Source: an uncultured Methanosarcinales archaeon (lineage in GTDB: Archaea > Nanobdellota > Nanobdellia > Woesearchaeales > GCA-2686295). Taken from it: a stretch of DNA of 64,000 nucleotides. The stretch spans positions 4,974 through 68,973 of the forward strand of contig CAYOEA010000009.1 in NCBI GenBank assembly GCA_964402995.1, read 5' to 3'. Made by a program: the position numbers and the translations under genes. Within the stretch, counting starts at the first letter, position 1, and each line of letters opens with the position of its first letter. The notes under the pieces are model-generated. The model was not told where the DNA came from and searched no databases. It saw only the letters and a program-made list of their open reading frames with translations. Shown here piece by piece: positions 15,583 to 52,228 of this stretch.

Positions 15583-15705
15583 GCCGCGGTCGCATAGCCT
15601 GGTATTGCGCAGGATTGCTATGTACAATTGTACGTATGAAAACCTACAATATCTCGCAGAGATCCTGTTCCTTTGGAATCATGGGTTCAAATCCCATTCG
15701 CGGCG
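15583..15705 (+). tRNA. tRNA-Ser(GCT) with a 41-nt intron at 37/38 (15621-15661)
   Basis: GCCGCGG/TCGCGGC acceptor stem, G73, CAGGA/TCCTG anticodon stem, long variable arm; BHB central helix TTGC/GCAG with TA|T and AG|A bulges (outer helix relaxed). Confidence 0.94.
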
Positions 15706-50452: not shown

Positions 50453-50556
50453 GAAGCATTTTCAGAACAATAAAGCACACATTTGTGCTTAATAATTTAT
50501 TTTAACTTATTTTTACAAAACGTTTATAAATAAAAAGTTCCTTCCTAAAGGAACAA

Positions 50557-50704
50557 GTGTGAACGGGTCCTTTTTCGAACTGAACGTAAAGTTCTTTGTT
50601 ATGAGACTAAGACACCCTCACGCGTGTCAGCCCGACACAGAGAGTACCTATTCGAGCCACGACGATTGTCAATGCGATGAAACTGGGAGTTAGTGACTCG
50701 GGCA
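50557..50704 (+). ncRNA. Candidate structured ncRNA of unknown family
   Basis: GC-rich island; TTTATAAA box at 50523-50530; helices GTGTGA(AC)GGGT/ACCCTCACGC and GCCCGA/TCGGGC; T-run downstream. Confidence 0.45.
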
Positions 50705-50983
50705 TTATTAATTTTTAATCATAAAATCACAAATTCACAGAACAAGTTCATTACTATCATAATCATTCATAATCATTTACAGCAGTAAACAATAGTAAAC
50801 TTGTTCTTAGCATAAACTTCAAATCAAAAAAAGTATGATGTATTAGACCTAATTTATAGTGTCTTATCGAATTGTGATTCTTGATTAACTTAACTAAAAA
50901 ATAAACTAAATTACGATTATTAAGAGGAACGAGAAACAAACAAAATTTTTTGTACCTCAAAATGTAATTTTGGAGGAAATAAA

Positions 50984-52228
50984 ATGGCGAAAATTGCACA
51001 AGTTGCAGCAAAATATATTATTCACGCAAAAATTCAAATTGAAGGTGTCGTAGACAAGCCCGATGTTATAGGGGCTATTTTTGGTCAAACAGAAGGTCTT
51101 TTAGGCGCTGATTTAGAACTTAGAGAATTACAAAGATCCGGTAGAATCGGAAGAATTGAAGTTAATGTTGAAACCAAAGGTGGAAAGACAAGTGGAGAAA
51201 TTATTATTCCTTCATCATTAGACAAAGCAGAAACAGCTATTGTTGGTGCATCATTAGAAATCATTCAAAGAATTGGTCCTTGTAACGCAAAAACTAATGT
51301 AGGATCAATTGAAGATATTAGAATCTCAAAAAGACAACAAGTTGTTGACAGAGCTAAAGAACTTTTAAAAGCACTTATGGATGGAGTCTTACCTGATAGT
51401 CAAGAACTTGCTGATGAAGTTGCATACTCGGTTAGAGTTATGGAAATTCAAGAATATGGTAAAGAAAGACTTCCTGCAGGTCCTGCAGTTGAAGAAAGTG
51501 ATGAAATTATTCTTGTTGAAGGCAGAGCAGATGTTTTAACTCTATTAAAACATGGATTCAAAAACGCAATTGCAATTAATGGTACAAGTGTTCCTGAAAC
51601 AATTCACGAATTAACTAAAAGAAAAACAACTACTGTTTTTGTTGATGGTGACCGTGGTGGAGATTTAATCATTAAAGAATTACTAGCAGTTGCAGAAATT
51701 GACTTTATCTGTAAAGCACCTGATGGAAAAGAAGTTGAAGAATTAACTCAAAAAGAACTACACAAAGCTCTTAGAGGAAAAGTTGCAGCTGAACAAGCTA
51801 AACTAGATACTACAACATCAAAACCTTCAACATCAAATCACAGTAAACCTAGTTATGAAAGAAGAGATAACAGATCTTCAAATCATAACAATGATAGACG
51901 TGAAGAAAGAAAAGAAGCACCACAACCAAAAAAGAAAGTTTCTAATGAAGAAAAAGCAAAATTCTCAGAAATGTTAGAAGATCTTATTGGTACTAGAGGC
52001 GCTTATGTCCTTGATGAAAGTTTAAACATTCTAGGTAAAGTTCCTGTATCAGAACTTCAAAGCACAATTAAAAGCTTAAGAACTGGCATTTATGCAGTTG
52101 TTCTTGATGGTGTGATTGATAAGGACTTGGTACTTACTGCAGAAAGAGCTAATATTAAATTCCTAGTTGCTATGGAATCAAAAGCTAAATCTGTAAAGAT
52201 GGAAATCATAACTGGCGACAGTCTTTAA
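50984..52228 (+). CDS. dnaG: Archaeal DnaG-like primase
   Basis: [42 protein letters not shown] and DGDRGG. Confidence 0.97.

Follow-up and report, generated by a model that had tools for sequence, protein, structure and literature searches.

The window analysed here, i.e. the whole stretch of 64,000 nucleotides (nt) of contig CAYOEA010000009.1 from an uncultured archaeon, carries on its plus strand, upstream of the gene dnaG, an element (50555-50707) that is very probably a two-hairpin box H/ACA guide small RNA (sRNA), with helix 69 and the A-loop of 23S ribosomal RNA (rRNA) as its proposed targets. Its membership in the class of box H/ACA guide sRNAs rests on structure, motifs, spacing and homology, and the element is genuinely a conserved non-coding RNA (ncRNA) gene of a known class, orthologous to the H/ACA sRNA of Nanoarchaeum equitans. 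In an earlier note, made from the window sequence alone, the same region was regarded as a structured ncRNA linked to dnaG and lacking an Rfam match, all of which has been borne out, but also as novel or unassignable, a view that does not hold in the light of the H/ACA features of the homologues. The H/ACA class had been rejected there because the window copy has UCA and UUA at the places where the ANA and ACA boxes would be expected; that exclusion is overturned by the homologues, with their ACA tail (60/77), two kink-turns (K-turns), rule-conforming pockets and near-identity to the N. equitans RNA.

Conservation upstream of dnaG

A scan of one genome per species provided a set of 80 dnaG loci (62-81% protein identity), nearly all labelled as Woesearchaeota, Nanoarchaeota or a mislabelled relative. 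The element was found by blastn in most of these loci and by an nhmmer profile in 75 of the 80; the covariance model R1, built from 34 full-length copies, recognised it in 77, with one copy per locus, and the three loci without a model match carry just 5-285 nt of upstream DNA. The same model matches the window at 50555-50711 (126 bits), which is its sole match in the entire 64 kb. At the homologous loci the element is always located on the dnaG strand, 150-450 nt upstream of the gene—in the window ~280 nt from the dnaG start—and the linkage to dnaG suggested by the earlier note is thus seen in 77 of the 80 related loci, on the same strand. As for the natural source, the DNA of the window occurs in salt-lake metagenomes, with 100% identity.

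Concerning the two hairpins, the second one is present at every locus, the first one together with its pocket in ~35 loci, i.e. those nearest to the window, and in the remaining loci hairpin 2 is preceded on its 5' side only by a short plain hairpin. The conserved core of the RNA is thus the helix 69 guide; the A-loop guide either arose in one subclade or disappeared from the others. As a separate observation, the 5' hairpin is reduced in many lineages (loci L073, L064, L077, L060, L079, L026 and others) to a short plain stem-loop (e.g. UUAUGCA-loop-UGCAUAA) without pocket or K-turn, immediately followed by the conserved hairpin of the helix 69 guide.

Covarying structure

The element forms a GC-rich island in AT-rich DNA, as the earlier note had described: the GC content amounts to 0.48-0.51 across 50550-50699 and to 0.22-0.30 in the flanks on either side, or, taken over 50555-50707, to ~50% versus ~25-30% in the surroundings. 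For the plus strand, a two-domain fold of -52.1 kcal/mol was obtained (z = -2.47); the minus strand gave the weaker value of z = -1.49. The structure was tested with 35 named pairs on an alignment of 34 sequences, the controls consisting of versions with the 3' partners slid by 1-3 columns and of 500 shuffles. Base pairing was found in 91.3% of the cells, compared with 29-41% in the slid controls; 21 of the 35 pairs carry compensatory changes, i.e. changes on both sides; the covariation score reached 0.373, compared with 0.06-0.11 for the slid versions; and not one of the 500 shuffles attained any of the observed structure measures. Moreover, the frequent G.U and U.G alternatives fit the plus strand only. 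The collection of homologues with a covariation check, proposed in the earlier note, has therefore revealed strongly covarying helices, and its idea of a structured ncRNA with a promoter of its own has held up.

Both hairpins share one plan: a covarying lower stem leads into a near-invariant internal loop, above which come an upper stem of 7 layers, a K-turn and, at the top, an apical hairpin that varies. In both cases the K-turn motif reads 5'-GA-GC...GC-NNU-GA-3', in which two G:A pairs stand in tandem next to a bulge of 3 nt and G-C closes the distal stem; the GA dinucleotides are invariant. The boundaries of the individual parts are collected in Table 1. The helices drawn previously were recovered as well, namely the domain 1 stem GTGTGA..GGGT/ACCC..TCACGC (50557-50568 with 50614-50623), its apical GAAC-GTAAA-GTTC, and the GCCCGA/TCGGGC closure of domain 2 (50630-50635 with 50698-50703).

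In hairpin 1, all 8 pairs of the lower stem (P1a/P1b) change on both sides among the homologues, with 93.7% of cells paired, and in the upper stem (P2) the pairs 16-61, 17-60, 18-59 and 21-56 are kept, 18-59 and 21-56 with compensatory changes. Its K-turn is composed of the 5' GA (50577-78), the C-stem AC/GU (50579-80 with 50598-99), the 3-nt bulge UAU (50600-02) and the 3' GA (50603-04), and is topped by the apical GAAC-loop-GUUC. The C-stem, AC/GU in the window versus GC/GC elsewhere, represents a compensatory exchange; the apical helix varies in sequence and keeps its complementarity.

In hairpin 2, the lower-stem pair 86-216 has been seen as AU, GU, CG, UA, UG and GC, and the pairs 84-218 and 87-211 show compensatory changes, as do four of the five pairs of the upper stem. 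The motif GAGAGU of the 5' pocket strand was retrieved by a pattern search in 66 of 78 sequences. Here the K-turn comprises the 5' GA (50654-55), the C-stem GC/GC, the bulge GAU (50676-78) and the 3' GA (50679-80), with the apical GAC-loop-GUC above it. The apical pairs 118-183 and 119-182 covary, and the insertions of 25-55 nt present in L003, L007 and L008 are situated in the apical loop only. Two pairings suggested previously have not survived the comparison: the alternative GACAC/GTGTC/GACAC, seen as a possible switch, is not conserved among the homologues and was rejected because the hinge sequence varies among them, and the hairpin at 50537-50554, lying between the TATA box and the RNA start, is not conserved among them either.

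Membership in the box H/ACA class

Archaeal H/ACA sRNAs obey well-described rules: the lower helix has at least 7 base pairs (bp), each strand of the internal loop measures 5-11 nt, 5-6 bp of upper helix lead up to the K-turn, the box is ANA, in most cases ACA, and it stands 14-15 nt from the target uridine (Muller et al. 2008, PMC2377435); as to the distal G:A pair, it is found 9-10 layers up from the base of P2 (PMC7075261, PMC2377435). Hairpin 1 conforms: its lower stem counts 8 bp, its loop strands measure 7 and 6 nt, and its upper stem has 7 layers. So does hairpin 2, with a lower stem of 6+3 bp interrupted by two bulged nucleotides, 8 and 5 nt in the two loop strands, and an upper stem of 7 layers. 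In both hairpins the 7 layers and the two G:A pairs of the predicted K-turn, read from sequence, give the value of 9. The distance from the hinge NCA box to the top of the hairpin 1 pocket, i.e. the first base of the 3' pocket strand, is 15 nt. In hairpin 2 the box lies 17 and 19 nt from the two predicted target uridines, outside the typical 14-16 nt ('n+15') rule, because this spacing is the arrangement of stem-loop 2 of sR-h45 from Haloferax volcanii.

With regard to the boxes themselves, ACA forms the 3' tail triplet of 60 of the 77 copies and the wider pattern NCA is matched by 74, UUA being confined to the window copy. The hinge triplet of the 31 two-hairpin homologues reads ACA in 18, UCA in 10, and CCA, GCA and AAA in one each. 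The letters UUA and UCA of the window copy are identical in three DNA runs, and its K-turns, stems and pockets are intact. Either box recognition is relaxed in the lineage of the window, or the window copy works less well.

Other RNA classes were considered, too. The scan of the element against Rfam 15 yielded no match at the gathering score and none at E <= 10 on the plus strand; a weak match to sn2429 (E = 6.9) concerns the opposite strand and lies outside the element. A transfer RNA (tRNA), including multi-intron and split forms, was rejected, as neither ARAGORN nor Rfam indicated any tRNA at the element, no T-arm/acceptor pairing was found by eye, and the covarying helices do not make a cloverleaf. 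A box C/D sRNA was also rejected on a comparison of motifs by eye: there are only internal K-turns of D'/C' topology, without a terminal C/D pair and without CUGA after the bulged strands. RNase P RNA and signal recognition particle (SRP) RNA were rejected after comparing their motifs by eye.

Comparison with known H/ACA RNAs

The closest known relative is the single H/ACA sRNA of N. equitans (Randau 2012, PMC3491384), which is 159 nt long and encoded between NEQ389 and NEQ392 (sequence in the supplementary table, 339411-339574); it is a discrete and abundant RNA located between tyrS and a hypothetical gene. Like the element of the window, it measures ~155 nt, consists of two extended hairpins with identical K-turn bulges, has its hairpins joined only by a three-base box (ACA there) with no H box, and possesses its own box A promoter and T-stretch (PMC3491384). 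Its stem 2 is nearly identical to hairpin 2—sharing CAGCCCGNCAC-GAGAGU, the K-turn ..GA../..GAUGA.., GUUAGUG, CGGGC and AACA. By contrast, the pocket sequences of its stem 1 differ from those of hairpin 1 and are not alignable, so that stem 1 presumably has a different target. The two RNAs also differ in their neighbours, which are tyrS in N. equitans and dnaG in the window, and in the boxes, the window copy being without both ACA boxes. As to the N. equitans RNA itself, the pocket of stem 2 (GAGAGU/GUUA, with ACA 17 and 19 nt away) points to helix 69 and not to the targets published from RNAsnoop; judged by analogy with stem-loop 2 of H. volcanii sR-h45, helix 69 is the likelier target.

The second RNA of importance is sR-h45 of H. 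volcanii, whose stem-loop 2, as Majumder et al. (2020, PMC7075261) showed by experiment, directs the formation of Ψ1940 and Ψ1942 in helix 69 of 23S rRNA. An unpaired UVUN yields there two pseudouridines, 17 and 19 nt from ACA (PMC7075261). Hairpin 2 is likewise the 3' hairpin of a two-hairpin RNA, leaves the U-V-U-N of helix 69 unpaired and has a K-turn in its upper stem, this likeness being one of published geometry and targets. On the other hand, sR-h45 is ~200 nt long and has a 56-nt linker and an AUAGCU H box (PMC7075261), and its 5' hairpin acts on GGGUUUAG of the peptidyl transferase centre, guiding the modification of the third U, whereas the 5' hairpin of the window fits the A-loop. 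When the stem-loop 1 target of sR-h45 was tried against the 3' pocket strand of hairpin 1, there was no fit. The U in question (E. coli U2586) is C in the rRNA clade of the DPANN type (GGGUUCAG), which is consistent with hairpin 1 guiding another site.

The Pyrococcus H/ACA sRNAs Pab21, Pab35, Pab40, Pab91, Pab105, Pab160 and Pab19 (PMC2377435) follow the same building plan and rules; outside the motifs, however, their sequences, like those of the related Rfam H/ACA families, are unrelated to the element, and no Rfam model matches it.

Predicted targets in 23S rRNA

The search for targets was based on 120 metagenome loci with archaeal 16S genes, ~60 of which also contain at least part of a 23S gene; the 23S positions follow the E. 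coli numbering, taken from the rrnH operon. The rules were run over 0.69 Mb of archaeal rRNA loci on both strands and compared with shuffles. Canonical scans for U-N targets gave nothing convincing on E. coli 16S, 23S and 5S rRNA, nor was there a recurrent site when the 120 archaeal loci were scanned with fixed pocket boundaries; an unconstrained bipartite search produced noise only, and the archaeal rRNA scans of viral contigs yielded fragments or nothing. The fits described below emerged only once hairpin 2 was permitted to leave four target nucleotides (UVUN) unpaired and hairpin 1 a single base of the guide.

For hairpin 2, the 3' pocket strand GUUA is complementary to UAAC (23S 1911-1914) and the 5' strand (A)GAGAGU to ACUCUC(U) (23S 1919-1925) in helix 69 of the DPANN type. 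This pairing leaves U1915-A-U1917-R unpaired, with 4+6(7) Watson-Crick bp around the UAUR. Most archaeal 23S sequences of the set have ACCCUC in helix 69, ACUCUC being present in seven loci (L129, L161, L166, L195, L232, L233 and L237). If only Watson-Crick pairs are permitted, all seven matches of the hairpin 2 rule fall on helix 69 of these ACUCUC loci, in comparison with 0.13 in the shuffles. As judged from this complementarity, U1915 and U1917 of helix 69 are most likely the targets of hairpin 2.

For hairpin 1, ACAC(C/U)C(U) pairs with (G)GGGUGU (23S 2548-2554) and (AA)NGGGU with ACCC(G/A)UU (23S 2557-2563); in the window copy, ACACCC pairs with GGGUGU (2549-2554) and ACGGGU with ACCCGU (2557-2562). 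The pairing amounts to 14 bp (7+7) in DPANN-like 23S rRNA and leaves U2555-C2556 of the A-loop in helix 92 unpaired. All three matches of the 7+7-bp rule are on helix 92 (L166, L232 and L237), the shuffles giving 0.2, and L161 carries a weaker version of the site. 23S contigs bearing precisely this A-loop target sequence occur in the same salt-lake runs as the genome of the window, and C at 50564 of the window—U in most relatives—pairs in Watson-Crick fashion with G2561 in this kind of rRNA. The most likely target of hairpin 1 in the subclade of the window would therefore be U2555. We infer that the 23S rRNA of the window's own genome carries both target sequences.

Since the same rRNA loci bear both types of target, both guides fit one rRNA lineage. 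L161, L166, L232 and L237 form a distinct clade of low-GC archaeal 23S rRNA, with GGGUUCAGAACGCUGUGAGGCAG at ~2581-2605 (the region of the peptidyl transferase centre) versus GGGUUUAGACCGUCGUGAGACAG in other archaea, with GGGUGUUCACCC in helix 92 and with the ACUCUC type of helix 69. In L161, at ~8548 on the plus strand, ~90 nt upstream of 16S in the presumed pre-16S leader, there is also a near-perfect complement of the hairpin 1 pocket, GAGUGU-UU-AACCCAU; this match is probably due to chance, as it is single and was not seen in related loci.

Taken together with the class, these pairings suggest how the RNA may work. It would be transcribed from its own TATA promoter and probably end at, or be trimmed to, the tail after hairpin 2. 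L7Ae would bind the K-turn of each hairpin, and the pseudouridine synthase module Cbf5-Nop10-Gar1 the lower stem, the tail and the internal loop. The strands of the internal loop could then pair with 23S rRNA on both sides of an unpaired uridine, which would be isomerised to pseudouridine. In the 3' hairpin, the UVUN-type pairing with helix 69 would give pseudouridines at U1915 and U1917, and in the 5' hairpin, pairing with helix 92 would give one at U2555, 15 nt above the hinge box.

Weighing the assignment

Several facts speak against a guide for these sites. The window copy has UCA (50627-29) and UUA (50705-07) instead of ANA/ACA, and in H. volcanii the atypical helix 69 reaction required the ACA box and the hinge ANA was needed in the two-hairpin RNA (PMC7075261). 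The published RNAsnoop targets of N. equitans stem 2 are 23S U614 and 16S U796 (PMC3491384). Once G.U pairs are admitted, 42 matches to the short helix 69 rule stand against a high background of ~24 in shuffles. The hairpin 1 duplex leaves the guide base C at 50569, at the pocket top, without a partner, and the two pocket strands can pair mutually (GGGU/ACCC). The target rRNA sequences come from related metagenome contigs and not from the genome of the window, and the only RNA evidence is one low-depth contig of a relative, for which DNA carry-over is possible.

The alternative that survives best, quite unlikely as it is in our opinion, takes the element for an H/ACA-like, L7Ae-binding sRNA that does not guide modification at the proposed sites, i.e. 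an orphan, a guide for another site, a chaperone of rRNA folding or processing similar to eukaryotic snR30/U17, or, in the lineage of the window, a decaying guide without ANA boxes. It could draw on the UCA and UUA just mentioned and on a hinge box that is merely NCA across the homologues, as well as on the other RNAsnoop targets of the N. equitans homologue and on the commonness of short bipartite matches once G.U is allowed. The pockets, however, have stayed invariant in lineages that have repeatedly altered their stems, and a conserved rRNA partner would predict such constancy; both of them match the sense strand of 23S rRNA at two functional loops within one rRNA clade, far above shuffles. 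In addition, hairpin 2 shares its unusual 17/19 spacing with the helix 69 guide proven by experiment, and the window copy retains its K-turns, stems and pockets.

The guide reading may also be extended to an ANA-free H/ACA guide with a UCA hinge and a UUA 3' end, accompanied by a relaxed or altered recognition by the PUA domain of Cbf5 in DPANN, and made as a co-transcript with dnaG in which the AGAACAAG/CUUGUUCU stem serves as a processing or regulatory signal. We regard this as rather unlikely; if true, a transcript shared with dnaG, which encodes a subunit of the archaeal RNA exosome, would explain the order-wide linkage of the sRNA to dnaG.

Transcription and flanking features

The TATA box TTTATAAA claimed by the earlier note is present at 50523-50530, and so is the T-run TTTTT after the element (50712-50716). 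In close relatives the TATA box is preceded by a stretch CGATATG/AACG resembling the transcription factor B recognition element (BRE), GTTTATAAA is kept at the place of the box in close homologues, and the two-hairpin members have a TATA-like box 27-39 nt before the start of the covariance model. The T-run is considered the likely terminator because the H/ACA sRNA of N. equitans exhibits such a promoter/terminator pattern (PMC3491384), and many homologues have an oligo-T or AT-rich tail after ACA.

The sole RNA run found, a sediment metatranscriptome in the form of assembled contigs, contains a 212-nt contig ~93% identical to 50564-50769. It starts ~35 nt after the TATA box and runs past the T-run; its 14 differences are in apical loops, the upper stem or the tail, with none in a pocket. 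This contig is a hint that the copy of the relative is transcribed. The relative in run X14 differs from the window at 50682, 50683 and 50685 of the hairpin 2 upper stem, changing the pairs 49-85 from U.G to U-A, 51-83 from U.C to U-A and 52-82 from U-A to U.C; the first two changes preserve or create a pair, the last breaks one.

Between the element and dnaG there is a separate conserved stem-loop, present in 48 of 78 loci with an arm spacing of 36-129 nt. The sequence of its 8-bp core is nearly invariant, its AT-rich loop contains ATCA/TCAT repeats, and it folds with z = -4.14; its pattern has one match in the window, 0.00 being expected. A ninth pair covaries (UA, CG, UG, AU) and is formed in 40 of the 48 loci, compared with 20 of 48 in the control. 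This stem-loop could be a leader element of dnaG, or it could serve the sRNA precursor in processing or termination.

It is here that a second alternative has to be weighed, namely that the whole element is a cis-acting leader of the dnaG messenger RNA—a structured 5' untranslated region, such as a regulator binding L7Ae or another protein—co-transcribed with the gene and giving no free-standing, trans-acting RNA. The strict same-strand linkage in 77 of the 80 loci, the second conserved stem before dnaG and the extension of the metatranscriptome contig beyond the T-run to 50769 would all suit it. Nevertheless, the N. equitans homologue is discrete and abundant, has its own promoter and T-stretch and does not lie at dnaG (PMC3491384); in the window, ~280 nt separate the element from the dnaG start and a T-run follows it; its features are those of guide RNAs; and co-transcription with processing is equally compatible with a guide RNA, so that the leader is a very unlikely explanation. 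A small protein gene—a 44-codon open reading frame (ORF) with a GTG start at 50559-50693, or a 32-codon one on the minus strand—can be dismissed as extremely improbable, because the ORFs of 30-45 codons that overlap the island, those of 30-32 codons having been named earlier as an argument against an ncRNA if translated, are not conserved in frame or strand (the longest stop-free frame switches both between homologues), because close relatives differ by indels of 1-2 nt and by insertions of 25-55 nt confined to apical loops, because the helix substitutions are compensatory, and because stop codons are scarce in any GC-rich stretch of an AT-rich genome simply on account of its composition.

Table 1 Features of the guide sRNA candidate and its surroundings in the window
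Feature	Position	Strand	Basis
TATA box (box A) of the sRNA gene, TTTATAAA	50523..50530	+	sequence
Probable two-hairpin box H/ACA-type guide sRNA, whole, ~153 nt	50555..50707	+	covariance model, covariation, metatranscriptome contig
Hairpin 1, lower stem, 5' strand (P1a); pairs with 50618-50625	50555..50562	+	
Hairpin 1, pocket, 5' side (PS1), ACGGGUC	50563..50569	+	GUC invariant (columns G13, T14, C15)
Hairpin 1, upper stem, 5' strand (P2a, 7 layers); pairs with 50605-50611	50570..50576	+	
Hairpin 1, K-turn and apical hairpin	50577..50604	+	motif conserved in both hairpins
Hairpin 1, upper stem, 3' strand (P2b)	50605..50611	+	as P2a
Hairpin 1, pocket, 3' side (PS2), ACACCC	50612..50617	+	ACAC nearly invariant
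Hairpin 1, lower stem, 3' strand (P1b)	50618..50625	+	covariation
Hinge GUCA; UCA (50627-29) at the expected ANA-box place, directly against hairpin 2	50626..50629	+	
Hairpin 2, lower stem, 5' strand, GCCCGA + CAC; pairs with 50693-50703, 2-nt bulge in 3' strand	50630..50638	+	
Hairpin 2, pocket, 5' side (PS1), AGAGAGUA	50639..50646	+	conservation, 23S complementarity
Hairpin 2, upper stem, 5' strand (7 layers); pairs with 50681-50687	50647..50653	+	
Hairpin 2, K-turn and apical hairpin	50654..50680	+	GA, GC, UGA invariant
Hairpin 2, pocket, 3' side (PS2), AGUUA	50688..50692	+	GUU invariant
3' tail A + UUA, versus A/G + ACA in relatives	50704..50707	+	
T-run TTTTT, likely archaeal terminator	50712..50716	+	sequence
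Separate conserved stem-loop; AGAACAAGUU (50739-48) pairs with AACUUGUUCU (50799-808), AT-rich loop	50739..50808	+	
dnaG (archaeal DnaG primase/exosome-associated protein), conserved downstream neighbour	50984..52228	+	translation; homologous loci

Elsewhere in the window, at 15583-15705 on the plus strand, the Rfam tRNA model matches 123 nt not called by ARAGORN, probably an intron-containing tRNA gene.

Meaning for DPANN archaea

The finding is ordinary in kind, being the annotation of a known RNA class that leaves the understanding of H/ACA ribonucleoproteins unchanged. It offers an annotated H/ACA guide RNA for the DPANN genomes of Woesearchaeota and their relatives, which has been missed by Rfam-based pipelines, and links a woesearchaeal RNA to the one H/ACA sRNA known from N. 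equitans, for the stem 2 of which the RNAsnoop target prediction should probably give way to helix 69. The window copy, lacking ANA boxes, represents a natural test of the strictness of the ACA box. The pseudouridines of helix 69 have been described as conserved from bacteria to humans (PMC7075261), and the present results predict that reduced archaea retain the RNA-guided pseudouridylation of this helix and that one of their subclades added a guide for the A-loop.

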